Shown here piece by piece: positions 28,373-54,150 of a stretch of DNA of 64,000 nt (position 1 is the stretch's first letter; each line of letters starts with the position of its first letter). Position numbers and translations under genes: made by a program. The DNA comes from an uncultured Candidatus Saccharibacteria bacterium (lineage in GTDB: Bacteria > Patescibacteriota > Doudnabacteria > UBA920). The stretch is taken from contig CAZEKH010000004.1 in the NCBI GenBank assembly GCA_964512925.1, positions 72,392 through 136,391 of the forward strand, given 5' to 3'. The notes beneath the pieces were generated by a model, which made no database searches, was not told the DNA's origin, and worked only from the letters and a program-made list of their open reading frames with translations.

Positions 28373-28777
28373 ATGGATAGATCAACAAAAAAAATATTAG
28401 TTGTAGAAGATGACGGGCTTTTACAGAAAATACTCACAGACAAGCTTAGGCTTTTAAATTATCAGGTTTTTGCCGCAAGCGACGGCAGGGAAGCGCTTAA
28501 AATTGTGGAGGAGCAAAAACCGGATTTATTGCTTTTAGATTTATTGCTTCCTGAAATAGACGGATACAGGGTTCTTGAAAATATCCGTAAAAATACCGAT
28601 AAACAAATTGCTGAAACTTTAGTGATAGTGCTTTCAAACCTGTGGAGCGATCGCGACATTTTAAGCGCTCAAGCTTTAAAAATTGACGCTTATTTTGTGA
28701 AAACAACAGTGGACTTGGACGAGGTTTTTTCCCAGGTGGAAAAGTCGTTATTGGCCAAAGAAGGGTTGGAATCATAA
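28373..28777 (+). CDS. Stand-alone response-regulator receiver domain (CheY-like)
   Basis: VEDD...D...LLLPEIDG...K receiver motifs; no output domain. Confidence 0.75.
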   Translation: MDRSTKKILVVEDDGLLQKILTDKLRLLNYQVFAASDGREALKIVEEQKPDLLLLDLLLPEIDGYRVLENIRKNTDKQIAETLVIVLSNLWSDRDILSAQALKIDAYFVKTTVDLDEVFSQVEKSLLAKEGLES

Positions 28778-36570: not shown

Positions 36571-38256
36571 ATGTTCACTGAAGAAGAAAAAAAAGTTTTA
36601 CAAAAATTTGTCACTTCTGCTGAAGATAATATTTTTGCCATACGCGGGATGCCCGGGATGGTTGGGGCGGCGTATGCCCGTTATAGCAGGGCCAAGGGCG
36701 GCTTTAGAGAAGTATTGCTTAAAGAGTTTATAGAAGCTGGCAATATTGATCCCAAGCACGCTGACGAGCTGATTGCCAGGGTCTTGGTTGCGTACGGGGA
36801 CGACTCAGTGGGCGAGCTTGAAGGCGCGCATATCAGTTTTGAAAAAATATCAATGCTGGCGGCTAAAGAAATTGAAGATCGCAGGATCGGAGGAAGTCCG
36901 ATTGAGCAGTCTACCCGTTATGTTCTCTATGACCAAAAAACCGAGGATGGAAAATGGCTGTATTATAGGGGCGATGATGTGCTTAAAACCTCCTTTGGAA
37001 AATTGTATGAAGAAACGATGGATTTTATTTTTCAGACCTATTCAGAATTAGTTGAGCCTTTAAAAAAACATTTGGAAAATCAAAAGCCGTTGTCTGAAGC
37101 GGAATATGATATAAATGGCGATGGTAAAAAGGAGCTTTTAAGCGAATTGACTGATGACAAGCAGATCAAAGCTTTTAAACAAACTTATACTTTTGAACTG
37201 AGGGCTAAAGCTTGTGATATTTTAAGGTCTTTTTTGCCCATAGCCACCCTGACAAATGTTGGGATGTTTGGAAATGGCAGATTTTATCAAGGATTGATTT
37301 CTTATCTTCTAACTACTGATTTACCGGAAAATCACAGTGTGGCGGCGGGCGCTCAGAAAGCTTTGTCAGAAATTATCCCTCAGTACATAAGACGCGCTCA
37401 GAGAAGCGAGTACATAGCGGAAAATCGCCGGGCGATGTTTAGTTTAACCAAAGAAATGTTAAAAAGCCATAAAGCCCATCCGCCTTTGGAATTGCCAGAG
37501 TTTGTTTTACAAGACAGGGGAGAAAAAATTATAGAAAAAATTATTAAAGAAGGCGGTTTGGTGGAGAATGCTTTAAACCGAGCGGAGGAAATTTCGCTTT
37601 TAGCAATGATGCTATATTCATATAGTGATTTTGCTTTAGCTGATTTGAGACTGATTGTGGAAAATTTGTCTGAAGAGGAAAAAATAAAAATATTCCAAAC
37701 TTATATGGGAGAAAGAAAAACCAGAAGAGATCGTCCCGGCAGGGCTATGGAAGACGGTTATTCGTATAATTTTGATATGGTTACCAATTTTGGGGTTTAT
37801 AAAGATTTACAAAGGCACCGGATGAATACCCAAACCCGCCAGTTGTTTACAACCAAGCTTGGTTTTTTTTACGCGCCTGAACTGGAAGCTGTGGGCGCGA
37901 TGGAAAAAGCGAAATTGTGTGTGGAAAAATCCAATCAATTGTTTGAAAAAATGCATTTGGAAAATCCGGAACTAGCTCAGTATGCGGTGCTGCACGGGCA
38001 TTATATCCGCTGGTATATGGGTTTTAACGACCGAGAAGCTATGCATCTTTTAGAACTTCGTTCAACACCGCAAGGTCATCCGAATTACAGGCAGGCCGCT
38101 CAACAAATGCATAAATTGATCTTAGAAAGGTCAGAGCCAAGAGGTTCGGCTATGAAGTTTGTGGATCACAATGAATACTACTGGTCAAGGGCGGACAGCG
38201 AAGCCAAGCAGCGGGTTAAGGAAGCCGAACTTGATAAAAAATTCGGGAAAATTTAA
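36571..38256 (+). CDS. thyX: Flavin-dependent thymidylate synthase ThyX, tandem double-domain fusion
   Basis: The N half carries RRIGGSPIEQSTRY (RHR-x7-S-x-RY with H replaced by R). The C half carries DLQRHR with an altered Ser region. The protein is about twice the usual ThyX length. Confidence 0.6.
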   Translation: MFTEEEKKVLQKFVTSAEDNIFAIRGMPGMVGAAYARYSRAKGGFREVLLKEFIEAGNIDPKHADELIARVLVAYGDDSVGELEGAHISFEKISMLAAKEIEDRRIGGSPIEQSTRYVLYDQKTEDGKWLYYRGDDVLKTSFGKLYEETMDFIFQTYSELVEPLKKHLENQKPLSEAEYDINGDGKKELLSELTDDKQIKAFKQTYTFELRAKACDILRSFLPIATLTNVGMFGNGRFYQGLISYLLTTDLPENHSVAAGAQKALSEIIPQYIRRAQRSEYIAENRRAMFSLTKEMLKSHKAHPPLELPEFVLQDRGEKIIEKIIKEGGLVENALNRAEEISLLAMMLYSYSDFALADLRLIVENLSEEEKIKIFQTYMGERKTRRDRPGRAMEDGYSYNFDMVTNFGVYKDLQRHRMNTQTRQLFTTKLGFFYAPELEAVGAMEKAKLCVEKSNQLFEKMHLENPELAQYAVLHGHYIRWYMGFNDREAMHLLELRSTPQGHPNYRQAAQQMHKLILERSEPRGSAMKFVDHNEYYWSRADSEAKQRVKEAELDKKFGKI

Positions 38257-47588: not shown

Positions 47589-47618
47589 TATGTCGCACAA
47601 TGTATCTTATGCGACATA
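47589..47618. repeat. Palindrome TATGTCGCA-N12-TGCGACATA embedded in an AT-rich imperfect longer palindrome
   Basis: 9-bp perfect arms. Confidence 0.7.
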
Positions 47619-47732
47619 TAATATATAAATTAACAAAATTATTTCTTTTTATCTCTTTGTTTTTGAATTAGTTTACCGTGCTTTCCGTTTAAAAGTTTTT
47701 CAAAAATAAAATTTATACATTGTATTAAACTT

Positions 47733-47762
47733 AAAACCCAAATGAATATTCATTTGGGTTTT
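47733..47762 (-). terminator. Perfect 30-nt palindrome AAAACCCAAATGAATATTCATTTGGGTTTT; probably the terminator of the minus-strand hydrolase operon
   Basis: Perfect inverted repeat with flanking A/T runs. Confidence 0.55.
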
Positions 47763-47841
47763 ATTGGCATATTATTGTTCCTATACTTTTTATTTTTAGC
47801 GGCAGTGAGGTATTACTTGTCCCCTATCTTTGTATAAAGGC

Positions 47842-48807
47842 CTAATTTTTACAGGCCGTGTCTAAATCTATGTGGATGTGGTCATATTTACGGGCATCAG
47901 TACCTGGGTTAACCTGAAGCCCTAACGAGCTGGCCTTTGCTTCAGCTGCCTTGCCTGCCGGGCTGGATCTGAAAGCTTGTGAACCGTCGGCAAAATCTAC
48001 TGCGCAAAAACGGTAATGATAAGAATTTTTAGCATGTTGGCCGGAGGATACGGAAGAGATTTGTATTTTGCCTTTAGCTGATCCGGCCTTGCATATTTCC
48101 ACCACAGCGGCAAAAATTTCCGGCTGGATACGCGCCGCTTCTTTTTGAAACCTGGCTGCGTCCTGCCAGCCGCAGCCGGCTTGGGTTATGAGCGCTGGGT
48201 CATTTGACCCTAAAGCGTTGAAAATTTGTCCAGAGGAATTTTTCACTCCAGTAACGTTTCCGCTAGAATCTATAACTTGTGTCCAGTCATCCCACCCCGT
48301 TGTATCCAAAGCCACGCTCGGCAGCTGTAGTTTTGGGAACTTCACTAAATCTGGGTTAATGGTTTTAAGGAGTAAATAACCACCCATCAGTAGCACAAGT
48401 CCGGTTAAGCTGGTAGCCAGCATATCTTTGGCTTTGGAAACAGATTCATTATTGCCCTCGGCTGACATATATAAGTATCCGGCTATAACTATGAAAAAGA
48501 CTGAGATGGTGGCCCCAACAATGATGGCAAGGCGGTAAAGCTTGTTGATACAGCTGTATAGATCTCCTTGCCCTGAGACTTTGACTGTGCTTCCGTTAAC
48601 TATGTTTGCGTTTCCTGAAATATTGCTGTTATCCGAAGGCGCGCAGAGATACTTTTTTATCTGATCTGAAACTCCTGTATAGCTGGAGCCTTTTTGGGTG
48701 TAGGGGTTTTGGGTTTGGGCAAAAACTAAATTTACATTTGCCAGTAAAATAGCAAAGCTGAAGAAAAGAAAAAAGACCAGTTTGATTTTTTGTTTTGAGA
48801 ATATCAT
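47842..48807 (-). CDS. Paralogue A: signal peptide plus two-helix membrane hairpin (TrbC/VirB2-pilin-like) fused to a C-terminal M15-type zinc peptidase (VanY/L-Ala-D-Glu peptidase-like)
   Basis: N-terminal 170 aa nearly identical to paralogue B. C-terminal zinc ligands in SYHYRFCAVDF and DHIHIDL. Confidence 0.6.
   Translation of the reverse strand: MIFSKQKIKLVFFLFFSFAILLANVNLVFAQTQNPYTQKGSSYTGVSDQIKKYLCAPSDNSNISGNANIVNGSTVKVSGQGDLYSCINKLYRLAIIVGATISVFFIVIAGYLYMSAEGNNESVSKAKDMLATSLTGLVLLMGGYLLLKTINPDLVKFPKLQLPSVALDTTGWDDWTQVIDSSGNVTGVKNSSGQIFNALGSNDPALITQAGCGWQDAARFQKEAARIQPEIFAAVVEICKAGSAKGKIQISSVSSGQHAKNSYHYRFCAVDFADGSQAFRSSPAGKAAEAKASSLGLQVNPGTDARKYDHIHIDLDTACKN
48300..48745. repeat. Direct repeat copy 1 (about 450 bp, roughly 90% identical to 49690-50130)
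   Basis: Aligned by eye: ggttttaaggagtaaataaccacccatca...gtgtaggggtttt. Confidence 0.8.
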
Positions 48808-49232
48808 TTTATGCAGGTTACTGACAGGTTGTTTTCCTGATTTTTTATAAGTTCCATATTTGCAGCCTTTAGAATAGGGTCAAAAAATACCGGGTTATTA
48901 AAAGAGCTTTTTGGATTTGAAGTTGTAAAAGGTTTAGCGCATTTAAGCCAAAGCAAATCGCCTGTTGTATTCAATTCTACTTGTCCGTAGTTTTCTAATT
49001 CTGGCAAAGACAATGTTTTGGGATAATCCTGATAAATCAATTCCGCTTTAAGTTGTTGATTTTTTTCAGTTAAAGACAGAATATAACTTTCTATGGTAGA
49101 AGTTGGTGTAATGTTTGTAGTTACAGGGTTCTTGATTGTTTGCGGTGTCTTCTCAACAAACAGAAGAGCGCCTATGGCAATTAGACCAAAAAATATTAGG
49201 ATAGAAAGTAAAATAATTATAAACTTATTCAT
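48804..49232 (-). CDS. Small membrane-anchored hypothetical protein (142 aa) between the two paralogues
   Basis: N-terminal TM segment; 4-nt overlap with the downstream gene. Confidence 0.45.
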   Translation of the reverse strand: MNKFIIILLSILIFFGLIAIGALLFVEKTPQTIKNPVTTNITPTSTIESYILSLTEKNQQLKAELIYQDYPKTLSLPELENYGQVELNTTGDLLWLKCAKPFTTSNPKSSFNNPVFFDPILKAANMELIKNQENNLSVTCIK

Positions 49233-49242
49233 AATATATTAT

Positions 49243-50211
49243 TTAGGCTCGAAATTTGTTAAGCCACGATGCAACAGCATCAACACCCTTATCCCAGGTG
49301 CCAAAATTTTGTTTGTTGCCGGCATCGTCATTTCCAACGTTGCCTGGGTTGAAGGTTTGCGCTCCAAGCCCTTTGGTTCCTAGCGAACTGTCGGTTTGCA
49401 TTATGGCAACCATAAGTTTTGCATCTACATTATATTTTGCCGCCGAAGCAAGAATCATTGAGCCGGTTAAGGGAGTTTTTGGAGCTGCTTTTTTTAAATA
49501 TGAATCTATGGTTTGGGGCGATGAAAAATCAATATTTTTCAAATCGTTATATATTTGGGTAACCAAAGCCTCATGATTAGAGGCAGTGGCATAAGGACCA
49601 ATATTATAGCCAGCTAAAATATGCGTCTGGGTTGAATTTCCCGCGCCTCCCCCTCCTCGCGTTGAGGTAAAAGAATAAGTATTCCACTCCGCAGCATCCA
49701 AAGCCACGCTTGGCAGTCTCAGTGTTGGGAATTTTACCAAATCCGGGTTAATGGTTTTAAGGAGTAAATAACCACCCATCAAAAGCACAAGTCCGGTTAA
49801 ACTGGTTGTTAATATATCTTTGGCTTTAGACACAGATTCGTTATTACCCTCGGCTGACATATACAAGTACCCGGCTATAACGATAAAAAAGACTGAGATG
49901 GTAGCTCCGACTATGATGGCAAAGCGGTAAAGTTTGTTGATACAGCTATACAAATCTCCTTGTCCTGAGATTTTGACCGTGCTTCCGTTAACTATATTTG
50001 CATCTCCTGAGATATTGTTGTTATCCGAAGGCGCGCAAAGAAACTTTTTTATTTGATCTGAAACTCCTGTGTAGCTTGAACCTTTTTGGGTGTAGGGGTT
50101 TTGACCAGCTGCGGGCAAAGCGTCAGTTTGGGCAAAGACATTGGAAACATTGCCAAAAAATATTCCAAACAGAATATAACAAAAGAAAAAAATTTGAAAT
50201 TGTTTTTTCAT
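49243..50211 (-). CDS. Paralogue B: the same signal peptide and TrbC/VirB2-like hairpin, fused to a C-terminal GH73/FlgJ-like (or lytic-transglycosylase-like) peptidoglycan glycosidase domain
   Basis: C-terminal AAKYNVDAKLMVAIMQTDSSLG...NPGNVGN resembles the glucosaminidase motif AQAILESGWG...NNLFG, with D at the acid position. Confidence 0.55.
   Translation of the reverse strand: MKKQFQIFFFCYILFGIFFGNVSNVFAQTDALPAAGQNPYTQKGSSYTGVSDQIKKFLCAPSDNNNISGDANIVNGSTVKISGQGDLYSCINKLYRFAIIVGATISVFFIVIAGYLYMSAEGNNESVSKAKDILTTSLTGLVLLMGGYLLLKTINPDLVKFPTLRLPSVALDAAEWNTYSFTSTRGGGGAGNSTQTHILAGYNIGPYATASNHEALVTQIYNDLKNIDFSSPQTIDSYLKKAAPKTPLTGSMILASAAKYNVDAKLMVAIMQTDSSLGTKGLGAQTFNPGNVGNDDAGNKQNFGTWDKGVDAVASWLNKFRA
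49690..50130. repeat. Direct repeat copy 2
   Basis: See copy 1. Confidence 0.8.
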
Positions 50212-50217
50212 TTTAGA

Positions 50218-51561
50218 TTATAAAAAATCCAGCGGGTTGTAGGTGTAGCCAAAAGGCAGGCGGTAAGAACCGTAAATGTTGCTGTATTTACCGTTTGAAA
50301 CCCCAAATCCTTCGGCGTCGTAGACGCCGAAATGTATGTGGTATCCCCTTTCCGGCCCATATAATTTTTTAGTGGTATTGCCTGTGTTGCCTTCGTATCC
50401 GACAATATCTCCCTGCAATACTTTTTGTCCGGGTTTTACTTTATAACTTCGTAAGTGTGCATATAAAGTTACGATGCCTCTTGATCCGCCGGAGGTGCTG
50501 ATGTTATGTTTGATAGCAACCCAGTTTCCATAAGCTTGATCTGAAGAGTCTGTGTATAAAACTTCTCCGTCTGCGGCCGCATATACGGGCTGTCCAGCCG
50601 GGGCTGCTATATCGATCCCATTATGAAAATTGTAACCCAAGGCGGTAAAGCCTGTATTTCCGTATTTTTGAGTTAAAATCCCGTCCATTGGCCAGGCTAA
50701 AACTCCTTTTTTTGCCGCTATGGTTTTTTTACCGAGTTTTGTCCTTATTTGTTCGTCAAGTTCATTGATTTCTTTTTGAATATCCTGCTCTTCTTTTTTG
50801 CTTGTGGCTAAAAGTTTTTGAAAATTGGATTCCAAACCTCTGGTTTGAGCGAGCAATTTTTCTTTTTGAGAACGTTGGGTGACCAGCGATTCCTTGCTTA
50901 TTTGCAGCTGCTCTTTTAGCTCATTTAAATTTTTTAACTGTATTGTTAATTCTTTTTGTTGTTGTTCCAGTCTTGCTTTCAGGTCTTTTATTTTTTTTAC
51001 CAGCTGGAAAATTTTATCTTGATAACTGTTATTGTACTCTATTTGGTCTAAAAATTCGGAAAGATTTTTCGCGCCCAATGTGGATTGGAGTTGGTATTGC
51101 TGGTCAAATTCATTTAGTTCCACTATCAGCTGGCTCAAAACTTTTTTGTTGTCCGCAATTTCTTTTATTTTTTGCTCTATGAGCTTTTCCGTTTCCGCTA
51201 TTTGGAGTTGAGTATCTTCAATTTGGGTGTTTTTTGCTTCTATTTGCAGTTCCATAGACGCAATTTCCCGGTCAAAAATGAAAACTTCGTTTTTGAGTGA
51301 ATTGGAAGCGTCTCTGGCTTTGGCGATTTGTTCGGTGTATTGCTTGATTTGTTTATTTAATTGTTCCAGCTTTTGCTGGCGCTGGTCTTTTTCGTTTTGC
51401 AGTTTAGTTGCGGCGTCTGTAGCGTCATCGGCTTTAGTTAAAAAAGCGCTCAAACAAAACATAAACAAAAAAACCGGCAAAGCAAACAAAGCCAACATTT
51501 TTCGTTTATTTTTTGTTTCAATGAGGTTAATCATTAAAATAATTATACCATAAATTTTCAA
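50218..51561 (-). CDS. Peptidase M23 (LytM) with an N-terminal TM/signal segment and a long coiled coil (EnvC/PcsB-like architecture)
   Basis: HNGIDIAAPAGQP, YAHL and HIHFGV M23 motifs with about 250 aa of coiled coil. The start may instead be at 51498. Confidence 0.85.
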   Translation of the reverse strand: MKIYGIIILMINLIETKNKRKMLALFALPVFLFMFCLSAFLTKADDATDAATKLQNEKDQRQQKLEQLNKQIKQYTEQIAKARDASNSLKNEVFIFDREIASMELQIEAKNTQIEDTQLQIAETEKLIEQKIKEIADNKKVLSQLIVELNEFDQQYQLQSTLGAKNLSEFLDQIEYNNSYQDKIFQLVKKIKDLKARLEQQQKELTIQLKNLNELKEQLQISKESLVTQRSQKEKLLAQTRGLESNFQKLLATSKKEEQDIQKEINELDEQIRTKLGKKTIAAKKGVLAWPMDGILTQKYGNTGFTALGYNFHNGIDIAAPAGQPVYAAADGEVLYTDSSDQAYGNWVAIKHNISTSGGSRGIVTLYAHLRSYKVKPGQKVLQGDIVGYEGNTGNTTKKLYGPERGYHIHFGVYDAEGFGVSNGKYSNIYGSYRLPFGYTYNPLDFL

Positions 51562-51611: not shown

Positions 51612-53144
51612 TTATAATTCAGTAGCGGCTTGGATCAGTCTGTCTATTATCTCTTGTTTCCCTTGGCCAAACAACAGCACTGAAGCAACTTCAAAAGGTC
51701 CGGGACTTTTTTCTTGGCCGGTTAACGCATACCTCAAAGGCCATAATACAGAGCCGTTGTCGTAACCGTTTTTTTCTATAAAAGACTTAAGCTCCGTTTC
51801 AAGATTTGCTTTAGAAAATTTGGCCGTATCTAGAGTTTTGAAAAATTCCGCAAGCTCGTTTAAAACTTTTTTTGTAGACTCAGCCGTGGATTTTTTCCAA
51901 ACCATGAGCTTGGGGTCAACTTTCGGGCGGACAAAAAAGTATGTTGTCCGCTCCCCTATTTCCGAGAGTTTTTTTAGTCTTTCTTTTTCTAAGTTCGCGA
52001 TTTGTTCAAAATATTCGTGCGGCAGGACGGTTTTGTCAAAGTTTAAATGGTTAGCTTCCCAATACTTTAACCAGTAAGGCAAAAGCTCGTTGGTAAGTTT
52101 GCTTGGGTTCATTGTTTTAATGTATTGGCTGTTCATCCAGTCGAGCTTGTTTTGGTCAAAGACAGCCGGCGCTTTGTTTATTTTTTCCAAGTCAAAATTT
52201 TCCATGAGTTCATCCATACTGAAAATTTCTTGCTCGGTTTTCGGGTTCCAACCTAAAAAAGCCACAAAATTTATTAGCGCGTCTTTTAGATAGCCTTTGG
52301 ACAGAAAATCTTCAACAGCCACATCGCCTTGTCTTTTGGAAAGTTTTGACTTGTCTGGATTTAAAATCAGCGGCAAATGGGCGTACTGGGCGGGCTGAAA
52401 GCCCAAAGCATTGGCTATGAGCAAATGTTTTGGAGTGGACGGCAGCCATTCTTCCCCGCGGATAACGTGAGTAATTTTCATATGATGGTCATCTACGACA
52501 ACAGCAAGGTGGTAAGTCGGGAAGCCATCGGATTTTAGTATGACTTGGTCGTCTAAAATTTGGTTTTGATATTTGACCACGCCAAAAATCAGGTCGTTGT
52601 GCACTGTTTCTCCTTCAAGCGGGATTGCAAAACGGATGACCGGATTTTTACCCAAAGCCTTAAATTCGGCTTGTTTTTTTTCAATTTCTTTTGCGGTTAA
52701 ATTCCTGCAATGACGGTCGTACATCGGAGGTTTTTTTAGCGCAACCTGCTCTTTGCGAAGTTCATCAAGCCTTTCAGAAGAACAAAAGCAGAAATATGCT
52801 TTTTTTTCTTCCACCAATTGAAGAGCGTATTTTTGGTAAATTTCTAAACGTTTGGATTGAAGGTATGGGCCATAGTCCCCTTTCTCTTCTAAGCTTCCGT
52901 CGGGTTTTAAAAAATATCCTTCATCAAACCCAATACCAACTTCACTCATCACTTTCAGTAAATTTTCCACTGCCCCTGAAACTAGGCGGTTTTGGTCGGT
53001 ATCTTCTATGCGCAGGATATGACTGCCTTTGTTTTTTTTTGCAAATAAAAAAGAAAACAGCGCGGTTCTAAGCGAGCCTATGTGAACAAAGCCGGTGGGG
53101 CTGGGAGCAAAGCGAGTCCGTACAGATTGATCAAAATTGCCCAT
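51612..53144 (-). CDS. gltX: Glutamyl-tRNA synthetase
   Basis: HIGS (HIGH) and KLSKR (KMSKS) motifs. Confidence 0.9.
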   Translation of the reverse strand: MGNFDQSVRTRFAPSPTGFVHIGSLRTALFSFLFAKKNKGSHILRIEDTDQNRLVSGAVENLLKVMSEVGIGFDEGYFLKPDGSLEEKGDYGPYLQSKRLEIYQKYALQLVEEKKAYFCFCSSERLDELRKEQVALKKPPMYDRHCRNLTAKEIEKKQAEFKALGKNPVIRFAIPLEGETVHNDLIFGVVKYQNQILDDQVILKSDGFPTYHLAVVVDDHHMKITHVIRGEEWLPSTPKHLLIANALGFQPAQYAHLPLILNPDKSKLSKRQGDVAVEDFLSKGYLKDALINFVAFLGWNPKTEQEIFSMDELMENFDLEKINKAPAVFDQNKLDWMNSQYIKTMNPSKLTNELLPYWLKYWEANHLNFDKTVLPHEYFEQIANLEKERLKKLSEIGERTTYFFVRPKVDPKLMVWKKSTAESTKKVLNELAEFFKTLDTAKFSKANLETELKSFIEKNGYDNGSVLWPLRYALTGQEKSPGPFEVASVLLFGQGKQEIIDRLIQAATEL

Positions 53145-53202: not shown

Positions 53203-54150
53203 TCAAACCTGGGAAGATTTAATTTTGTATTTAATCAGTTCGGATACAAGGCCCCAAGTTGCGTGGAAAATCCTTTTATATCTTTTGGGCTGGGTTAGAA
53301 GTCTCCATAACCATTCCAGACCCATTTGAGCTAGTATTTTTGGAGGCTTTGGGTATATGCCGGCTAAATAATCAAAAGTTCCGCCAACGCCCATAACCAA
53401 ATTGATGCTTGAAAGTTTTGGCAAATTTTCCAAAATCCACTTCTCCTGGCGGATAGGTCCAAACGCAACAAATAAAATATCAGGGTTTGCGATGTTTATA
53501 TCATCAATAATTGACACATCCTCGGGATTTTTGTTTGAATATTGAACCCTGATTTTTTGATCTGCTGATCTACTGATCAACTGTTCCGCTGCCAATTTCG
53601 GAGTTTCCCCAAATCCTCCAAGTAAATAAATTGACCAGTTATTTTTTTCCGCAAGCTCTGCAATGTCAGAAACTAGTTCTCGTCCCGGGATTCTTTCTAT
53701 TTGCGTACCAAGCCCCCTCCCCTGCCCTCCCCCGCCTGTGGCGGGAGATGGAGAAAAAAAAGGAAAGGCAAATTTGATTAGCACAGCTAACGCTTGAAAG
53801 TAGGCTTTAAAAATTATTTTCCAGTGGTTAACATTTTCTAGCTTGCCTTTGAACTTATTTTTTTCCCCTCTCCCCGAATCAGATGGGGGGGGAGAGTAGG
53901 GTGGGGGTGTGGGTGGTATTTCCAAATATGTTTTTGCCCACAAAATCCCAATACCGTCAGCTAGGGCAATGTCAGCTTTGTTTAGCATTTCTAAAATTTG
54001 TTTGTCGCGTAAAGCAGCATACAAAAATTCTGAGTACAAAGTCGTTACCCAGGTTTTTTGTTTGTTTCTAATATTTTTTTCTAATTCTTTCAGTAATTCA
54101 GGTTTAGAAAAGTTGTTAATCTTAAGTCCCGCAACATCAATTTTTTGCAT
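53203..54150 (-). CDS. WecB/TagA/CpsF family glycosyltransferase carrying an in-frame insertion of about 70 aa
   Basis: Conserved ADGIGILWA and VMGVGGTFDY blocks. The insert is PTPPPYSPPPSDSGRG...GGGGQGRGLG. Confidence 0.7.
   Translation of the reverse strand: MQKIDVAGLKINNFSKPELLKELEKNIRNKQKTWVTTLYSEFLYAALRDKQILEMLNKADIALADGIGILWAKTYLEIPPTPPPYSPPPSDSGRGEKNKFKGKLENVNHWKIIFKAYFQALAVLIKFAFPFFSPSPATGGGGQGRGLGTQIERIPGRELVSDIAELAEKNNWSIYLLGGFGETPKLAAEQLISRSADQKIRVQYSNKNPEDVSIIDDINIANPDILFVAFGPIRQEKWILENLPKLSSINLVMGVGGTFDYLAGIYPKPPKILAQMGLEWLWRLLTQPKRYKRIFHATWGLVSELIKYKIKSSQV
53709..53917. mobile_element. MITE-like insertion of about 210 bp inside the tagA-like gene: C/G-rich inverted termini around an AT-rich core, read through in frame
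   Basis: The right end contains CTCTCCCC-N12-GGGGAGAG (family core). The left end contains CCCGCC-TGT-GGCGGG. Confidence 0.55.

Follow-up and report, generated by a model that had tools for sequence, protein, structure and literature searches.

Probable homogenisation of pilin-like modules in two adjacent, putative peptidoglycan hydrolases of a Doudnabacteria-like genome

Patescibacteria account for much of bacterial diversity. To our knowledge, every member brought into culture is an epibiont of other microbes, and little is known of how these bacteria breach or remodel cell walls. Here we analysed a 64,000-nucleotide (nt) stretch of DNA (the window; contig CAZEKH010000004.1, positions 72,392 to 136,391, assembly GCA_964512925.1) deposited under the name of an uncultured Candidatus Saccharibacteria bacterium. 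Two neighbouring genes of the window, named A and B, encode proteins that share an N-terminal pilin-like module and carry C-terminal heads of unrelated folds. A first-pass annotation of the same DNA had described two direct repeats inside these genes and read them as a recent segmental duplication. We found it probable that A and B are instead an old pair of hairpin-anchored peptidoglycan hydrolases, whose modules have been repeatedly homogenised by recombination while their heads were kept distinct.

The closest described systems belong to type IV secretion systems (T4SS). Concerted evolution of tandem T4SS pilin genes was reportedly described by Nystedt et al. in 2008 for the Trw system of Bartonella (trwL/trwJ). 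As at the window locus, tandem paralogs of VirB2-type pilins at one locus are homogenised within a genome and other parts diversify. However, whole small pilin genes were amplified inside the T4SS operon of Bartonella, whereas at the window locus homogenisation concerns only the N-terminal module of two enzyme fusions of ~320 amino acids (aa), the heads have unrelated folds, and no T4SS genes lie nearby.

Among Patescibacteria, arrays of VirB2-like genes were highly variable: within an array, aa identity averaged 25% and did not exceed 54% (Quinonero-Coronel et al. 2025, PMC12102498). The window genes come from the phylum of these arrays and probably belong to their Pfam family (PF18895/PF04956), and in both the genes are in tandem or have one non-pilin gene between them. 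Neither hydrolase fusions nor module-restricted homogenisation were described for the arrays (PMC12102498), whereas modules of the window type are 64-100% identical (80-100% in 8 of 10 pairs) and fused to predicted peptidoglycan hydrolases. In a Saccharibacterium, T4SS components, as well as peptidase and lysozyme genes next to virB4, were essential for epibiotic growth, and most Patescibacteria with VirB2 homologues lacked a recognisable VirB1 (PMC12102498). Pfam implicitly records the co-occurrence of pilin and lysozyme (PF18895 and PF18896).

Three further systems share some of these features. In the conjugation hydrolases of monoderm bacteria (PrgK, TraG of pIP501 and VirB1-like proteins), as far as they are covered in PMC12102498, an N-terminal anchor holds interchangeable SLT, LytM, CHAP or similar heads outside the membrane. 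According to that coverage the anchor is a plain transmembrane (TM) segment rather than a VirB2-like hairpin and the genes are part of T4SS operons, unlike the window proteins, which are encoded in a housekeeping operon and have M23 as a separate adjoining gene. Polymorphic toxins (CdiA-CT/CdiI, Rhs, TpsA; e.g. PMC3848433) also combine a conserved 5' part with unrelated 3' heads and have a small gene after some heads. In contrast to an expressed gene followed by orphan cassettes, both copies in the window are full-length genes; window-type heads are predicted cell-wall enzymes, not nucleases or pore formers, and half of the head types have no partner gene. Finally, non-reciprocal recombination keeps the two chromosomal copies tufA and tufB alike over the long term (kinetics in PMC5485169), whereas the converted tract at the window locus would be only domain-sized and bounded by non-homologous head sequence. 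Our literature searches returned no paper describing pilin-hydrolase fusions, the conserved locus, head turnover or domain-restricted homogenisation.

The repeat and the probable homogenisation of modules within genomes

A repeat scan of the window between 46 and 53 kb gave one direct-repeat family (48289-48588 versus 49681-49980, 86%). It was extended by blastn to 48289-48711 versus 49681-50103 (423 nt, 87.2%, E=5e-149), and blastn found no third copy in the whole window. The only other tblastn match, a weak one at 28477-28647, was rejected as a module copy because it runs antisense to a response-regulator gene. Read in codon frame, the two copies share 140 ungapped codons (420 nt, 87.4% identity; Table 1), with 128 of the 140 residues identical. 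Pairwise alignment therefore bore out the direct repeats in paralogous genes, at a length of about 420 bp and an identity of 87% rather than the ~450 bp and ~90% estimated before. As had been noted by eye, the changes were biased to third positions: the 53 mismatches fell 10/5/38 by codon position, with 43 transitions and 10 transversions.

The boundaries of the block were determined next to the domain layout. Identity per 10 codons was 73-97% within the block and 13-43% directly after it, so the sharp 3' boundary is real. From the junction of module and head onward, similarity was at background level and was not carried through the C-terminal domains; the proposal that divergence starts where the catalytic heads begin is thus supported. 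The 5' edge fell after the signal peptides, which were diverged, separated by a 7-codon indel, and alike only in their last ~9 codons. Of the "signal-peptide/pilin-like module" that the repeats were thought to cover, the pilin-like part is included and most of the signal peptide lies outside.

Table 1. Coordinates of the features discussed, in positions of the window
Feature	Coordinates	Strand	Basis or remarks
Repeat copy 1, module of gene A (residues 33-172)	48292..48711	-	Cys-pair mature N-terminal segment, two TM helices, short Lys-rich loop, NPDL...LPSV linker
Repeat copy 2, module of gene B (residues 37-176)	49684..50103	-	Alignment, Pfam T4SS_pilin, AF2 helices
Gene A, 321 aa; predicted signal peptide, pilin-like hairpin module and LAS-type zinc-peptidase head	47842..48807	-	Pfam, AF2, Foldseek, profiles
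Head A (residues 173-321), Hedgehog/DD-peptidase (LAS) fold; H264-x6-D271, H310-x-H312	47842..48291	-	AF2, Foldseek, motif
Gene B, 322 aa; predicted signal peptide, pilin-like hairpin module and lysozyme-like head	49243..50211	-	Pfam, AF2, Foldseek, profiles
Head B (residues 177-322), GH73/GH23-like lysozyme fold	49243..49683	-	Foldseek, MltC alignment, Pfam
orf142, small membrane-anchored protein with two invariant Cys	48804..49232	-	Linkage to B-type heads
Coiled-coil and Peptidase_M23 (LytM) endopeptidase, HxxxD/HxH intact	50218..51561	-	Pfam M23 E=1e-25; NCBIfam DipM/MepM/EnvC-like
gltX (glutamyl-tRNA synthetase), conserved upstream flank	51612..53144	-	
Perfect 32-nt AT-rich palindrome AAAACCCAAATGAATATTCATTTGGGTTTT	47732..47763	.	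About 80 nt past the gene A stop, in the 350-nt convergent intergenic region

The repeat was also seen in a second assembly. An independent Logan contig (L042, SRR14271332) was 100% identical to window positions 48360-49774 and confirmed the arrangement B-orf142-A between the repeats, orf142 being the small open reading frame (ORF) that separates the two genes. Both ends of this contig lie inside the longest identical run of the repeat (37 nt), which is where a true repeat would be expected to break an assembly made from short k-mers. The contig illustrates that the repeat fragments k-mer assemblies, which may explain why many homologs sit on contigs of 1-5 kb.

For the module pair of the window, the rate of synonymous substitution (dS) was about 0.61-0.62. 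The ratio of nonsynonymous to synonymous rates (dN/dS), a calculation that the first-pass annotation had proposed for the shared module, was 0.065, indicating strong purifying constraint on the hairpin module. A recent partial conversion tract was sought in the pair, and the longest identical run, the 37 nt mentioned above, was unremarkable and compatible with chance (P about 0.2-0.27).

We further investigated how the modules relate to those of other genomes. Homology searches found A-type and B-type proteins of full length (35-58% identity), in many cases on a shared contig. A scan of one genome per species, combined with exact-protein look-ups, gave 33 non-redundant loci, all from Patescibacteria metagenome-assembled genomes (MAGs) and many labelled Candidatus Doudnabacteria; record labels such as "uncultured Candidatus Saccharibacteria" are the depositors' own. 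Ten of the loci, including the window, have two module genes and were compared (Table 2). The heads within a pair were 17-28% identical. In 8 of the 10 genomes, the nearest relative of each module was its same-genome partner bearing a different head (84-100% nt identity). In a neighbour-joining tree of the modules, the two modules of a genome grouped together in all 200 bootstrap replicates for the window, L001, L002, L003, L017 and L029 and in 195 of 200 for L023; grouping by head type was seen only in L035 and L036. Modules of window A and window B were 93% identical in aa, compared with about 58% when window modules were set against their orthologs in L001, L002 or L006. In most pairs, identity ended 1-4 residues past the PPSV motif. 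Paralogs were thus more alike than orthologs, synonymous sites included, which is the pattern of concerted evolution.

Table 2. Module pairs in the ten loci with two module genes
Locus	Module nt identity	dS
L002	100% (479 nt)	0.02
L003	100% (372 nt)	0.04
L029	100% (431 nt)	0
L001	98.4%	0
L017	97.7%	0.12
L006	90.1%	0.15
Window	87.2%	0.62
L023	83.6%	0.76
L035	68.6%	2.5
L036	64.8%	saturated

Since the housekeeping proteins of these species differ by 30-40%, synonymous sites between species are saturated. Module pairs with dS of 0-0.8 are therefore not leftovers of an ancestral duplication and appear to have been homogenised separately in each lineage. The direction could be suggested in one case. 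The B-module of L002 was 92% identical to the A-module of L006 and 84% to the B-module of L006, which points to A-to-B conversion in the L002 lineage. These results suggested that the modules are under concerted evolution, most simply by gene conversion confined to the module.

An ancient duplication without recombination, in which the modules stay alike through purifying selection on the protein, is very hard to credit. The low dN/dS does indicate strong constraint, and the TM hairpin is well conserved across species. However, synonymous sites are beyond the reach of selection on the protein, yet they have hardly diverged in several genomes (dS 0-0.15), and such selection can account neither for module identities of 93-100% between paralogs versus 58-77% between orthologs nor for a tree that groups by genome.

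According to the reading favoured here, A and B would be adjacent members of a family of exported peptidoglycan hydrolases in Patescibacteria (Doudnabacteria-like). The two modules of a genome would repeatedly overwrite one another through non-reciprocal homologous recombination (gene conversion), with tracts ending at the limit of homology, the PPSV linker that precedes the non-homologous heads. The last homogenisation in the window genome is comparatively old (dS about 0.6), and both copies would have experienced strong purifying selection ever since (dN/dS about 0.06). Homogenisation of the shared module by gene conversion, which the first-pass annotation had offered as an option, is thus supported at the level of the family; as an ongoing process in the window genome it is not, the window being among the more diverged pairs of the series. 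The locus would offer a clear case from nature of gene conversion that ends at a domain junction. Homogenisation also marks out the module as the part in which the paralogs have to agree in exact sequence, and hints that the modules may have to stay compatible for co-assembly or for a shared docking partner. For annotation, the result is a caution against taking such repeats for recent duplications or assembly errors.

The pilin-like hairpin and the two predicted enzyme heads

The module consisted of an AxA-type signal peptide, a mature N-terminus of ~50 residues in which a Cys pair is conserved, two hydrophobic helices flanking a short KAK loop, and an NPDL...PPSV linker. The helices were read from the sequence at residues 92-113 and 131-150, with the KAK loop between them. 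This layout of signal peptide, two hydrophobic helices and short positive loop is that of the pilin family. The Pfam model T4SS_pilin (PF18895, cutoff 26.6 bits) matched gene A with 26.3 bits (E=8e-6) and gene B with 26.7 bits (E=5.9e-6), and TrbC (VirB2 family, PF04956) matched gene A weakly (E=0.028). AlphaFold2 (AF2) models built from family alignments predicted a long helical hairpin, with helices at 80-115 and 120-150 in A and at 84-119 and 124-154 in B. In a Foldseek comparison the predicted hairpin resembled the conjugation pilin 8dfu of Aeropyrum pernix (TMt 0.71).

With the module alone as query, a search of the whole library returned 13,102 cluster representatives (E<=1e-3), and most of the 150 nearest were 300-400 aa long with the module at the N-terminus. 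When the 125 closest module-bearing representatives were compared with Pfam, 116 matched T4SS_pilin (best 2.9e-71) and 7 matched TrbC (best 9.8e-14). Nearly all other domains in these 125 were cell-wall enzymes: SLT in 13, SLT_3 in 7, Peptidase_M15_4 in 4, Peptidase_C39_2 in 4, and single cases of Amidase_2, M15, M23, CHAP, Glucosaminidase and GDSL. The VirB2-like "pilin" modules that have until now been treated as subunits of pili thus commonly anchor predicted peptidoglycan hydrolases, and head types seem to be swapped freely between species. This may help to explain why a recognisable VirB1 is missing from most VirB2-bearing Patescibacteria. Some relatives (P0133 with 820 aa, P0115, P0157, P0207, P0151 and P0108) had 3-8 tandem copies of the hairpin module in one polypeptide.

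Head A was modelled by AF2 with a predicted local distance difference test (pLDDT) score of 94-99. Foldseek matched it to Hedgehog-N domains (prob 1.0, root-mean-square deviation about 3 A, TMt 0.5) and also to VanXYc (4mus), and profile searches gave Shh-N (E=0.035) and the T5 L-Ala-D-Glu peptidase (E=0.28). The zinc-ligand pattern of LAS enzymes was found in the sequence: H264, D271 and H312 were invariant in 30 homologs of head A, and the H310-I-H312 motif was present. Neither a curated M15 model nor any other Pfam or NCBIfam entry matched, suggesting that head A represents a divergent, uncatalogued LAS subfamily.

Head B was modelled with a pLDDT of 83-97. It has a lysozyme-like fold, with the GH73 catalytic domain of LytB (7pj3/7pj4) as its Foldseek match (prob 1.0), and the Pfam model Glucosaminidase (PF01832) matched with E=0.0018 and 19.4 bits, against a cutoff of 30.2. 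The MltC motif AIMQTESSF aligned with AIMQTDSSL of head B, placing Asp274 where the catalytic Glu of GH73/GH23 enzymes sits. D274 was invariant in 20 head-B homologs. The invariant Asp may mean that catalysis follows a different mechanism, or that the domain binds the wall without being catalytic. In addition to D274 (motif AIMQTDSSLG, region of 49390-49392), the family had a nearly invariant upstream His-Glu (H213-E214).

Because the signal peptide would be cleaved and the loop is positive, the positive-inside rule of topology would place both heads outside. The signal peptide and the VirB2/T4SS_pilin-like two-helix hairpin would therefore hold the C-terminal head outside the cytoplasmic membrane, where head A as a LAS zinc peptidase and head B as a GH73/SLT-like lysozyme-fold domain would work with the upstream M23 enzyme. 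An origin from a phage or prophage lysis cassette was also considered and rejected: PHROGs gave only a weak transglycosylase match for B, and A had no tblastn match among 50,697 phage records.

Conservation of the locus and diversity of heads

The order WecG-gltX-M23-[module gene(s)]-IscS (convergent)-ArfC-methyltransferase was kept in the 33 loci wherever the contig reached, with GltX and M23 only 51-71% identical to those of the window. The locus is conserved across a class-level lineage. M23 was directly upstream of the module genes in 31/31 loci extending that far. One or two module genes followed it, and their heads fell into at least 11 unrelated clusters at this one slot. The clusters that could be typed were several LAS subtypes, SLT, SLT_3, the B type (GH73-like), C39-like and M15_4, so that nearly all typeable heads are predicted peptidoglycan hydrolases. 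A-type heads were present in 8 loci and B-type heads in 7. Examples of the slot after M23 are L018:5956-7107, L026:4375-5952, L023:7274-8422 and L030:5884-6861; in L026, two enzyme domains (SLT and LAS) were joined in one protein.

The gene after head B was conserved as well. A homolog of orf142 (27-42% identity) directly followed 7/7 B-type genes. ORFs of this family were 129-160 aa long, with an N-terminal TM anchor, an outside domain of ~95 residues and two invariant Cys (L001:7916-8323, L002:8069-8506, L006:7976-8407, L017:7882-8361, L023:6877-7263, L029:6777-7190). The family was found in Doudnabacteria only, and its members had no match in Pfam, NCBIfam, PHROG or PDB. Unrelated small TM ORFs followed the SLT-type heads 5 and 9, and none followed LAS heads or the SLT of head 3. 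By its linkage to B-type heads, orf142 is a candidate inhibitor, immunity protein or accessory partner of head B, and its family offers a testable candidate for the first two roles.

These arrangements bear on the age of the gene pair. A recent tandem duplication in the window genome with replacement of one head, the repeat being the remnant of a young duplicate, would fit copies that are direct, adjacent and 87% identical. It would also fit L038, the locus of the closest A ortholog, where M23 is followed by A alone, so that B and orf142 could be an addition in the window lineage. However, a dS of 0.61 is not recent and no unusually long identical tract was present. Six further species, all distantly related, had a head B with an orf142 homolog in this slot, and A heads were likewise found there. 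Since both head types and the B partner ORF share this slot in species whose housekeeping proteins are 60-70% identical, the gene pair is old. Moreover, the same within-genome similarity was seen in at least 7 lineages with different head combinations, and many parallel duplicate-and-replace events would be needed. Neither the recent segmental duplication nor the tandem duplication followed by head replacement in this genome, both put forward by the first-pass annotation, was upheld, and we consider this scenario decidedly unlikely.

The M23-A arrangement of L038 is, in turn, the product expected of a repeat-mediated deletion of head B and orf142, and the earlier suggestion that the window locus is a hotspot for repeat-mediated recombination or deletion is plausible. 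Strain variants that would show deletion or copy-number change were searched for. A scan of metagenome contigs with a degenerate DNA pattern gave none, a protein-based metagenome scan gave one distant locus only, and the one record recovered with orf142 was a Logan contig of 1.4 kb that matches the window exactly.

Gene order was permuted between genomes. It was M23-B-orf-X in the window, L023 and L029, and M23-X-B-orf in L001, L002, L006 and L017 (intervals: window 47842-50211, L001:5980-8326, L002:6001-8509, L017:5905-8361, L029:5890-8075). We found no single repeat-mediated recombination event that converts A-B-orf into B-orf-A or the reverse.

Such permutation would be in line with a polymorphic effector locus, in which the module is the export or display part and also the homology arm for exchange of head (and partner) cassettes between strains or species. 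Module identity would then be a by-product, the heads would target the host wall, and orf142 would confer immunity. That a single syntenic position has at least 11 head clusters following a common module speaks for it, as do the small membrane-anchored ORFs right after glycosidase-type heads (all seven of B, and also heads 5 and 9) and the relation of the module to a VirB2-like family linked to Patescibacteria T4SS, components of which were essential for epibiotic growth in the one species tested (PMC12102498). On the other hand, orphan head or immunity fragments were not seen, LAS-type heads (A and heads 0, 4 and 8) had no partner ORF, and the context was strictly housekeeping, with a division-type M23 peptidase upstream. 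Incongruence of head and species distances was not established; this test of lateral head exchange had no power and was set aside, the species being near-equidistant (housekeeping identity 60-70%). Import of a cassette alone would also bring in a foreign, diverged module, and conversion would still be needed for identities of 98-100%. A polymorphic effector locus therefore seems quite improbable to us.

A bolder form of the idea is an undescribed polymorphic system of Patescibacteria. A VirB2-like pilin subunit would carry exchangeable wall-degrading heads, as a VirB1-VirB2 fusion on or at the base of a pilus that breaches the host wall, the orf142 family would neutralise glycosidase heads in the producer, and the homogenised module would be the homology arm for head swaps. 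We mention it as a speculation that is improbable but worth stating.

The best reading of the function is that A and B are hairpin-anchored extracytoplasmic peptidoglycan hydrolases, which may act on the cell's own wall or on that of a host. A role on the own wall, in division or remodelling, is suggested by the housekeeping context, the universal retention of the locus and the division-type coiled-coil M23 neighbour. A role on the host wall or in a pilus is suggested by the free interchange of peptidase and glycosidase heads, the VirB2-like module, the small ORFs after glycosidase heads and the published essentiality, for epibiotic growth of a Saccharibacterium, of T4SS components and of peptidase and lysozyme genes beside virB4.

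Several observations weigh against an old, repeatedly homogenised pair of hydrolases. With regard to homogenisation, the window itself is without sign of recent conversion, and the process is proposed from its relatives. Repeated lineage-specific re-duplication of the module with retention of the heads would give the same trees, and the permuted gene order is unexplained by simple conversion. The identities of 100% come from short-read MAG assemblies, in which bubble-popping could collapse a few real differences. With regard to the proteins, Pfam support for a pilin is borderline, lying at the threshold for both A and B, and T4SS genes were found neither in the 33 syntenic loci nor among the large ORFs of the window. 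The activity of head B is uncertain as well, owing to the Asp in place of the canonical Glu.

Operon layout and other genes of the window

The genes were arranged in a tightly packed operon on the minus strand in the order gltX, M23, B, orf142 and A, with the two module genes second and fourth from M23 on. M23 was 6 nt upstream of B, B and orf142 were separated by 10 nt, and orf142 and A overlapped by 4 nt. The palindrome past gene A (Table 1) is probably a terminator hairpin closing the M23-B-orf142-A operon, perhaps bidirectional, as judged from its sequence and position; a scan for consensus terminators did not pick it up. A second hairpin was located at 47589-47618.

The other genes of the window were housekeeping genes, among them those for SecA, ClpB, GatA/B, a PBP2-type transpeptidase, CTP synthase and L27. 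The WecG-type glycosyltransferase ORF (53203-54150, minus strand) had Pro- and Gly-rich low-complexity insertions (PPTPPPYSPPPSDSGRG..., SPSPATGGGGQGRGLG), and in several relatives WecG was fused to a NUDIX domain (L002:1624-2967, L003:495-1865, L038:2826-4103). For a 561-aa ORF at 36571-38256 (plus strand), the best Pfam match was ThyX (Thy1), which covered residues 397-517 only and left most of the protein, above all the N-terminal half, unaccounted for.

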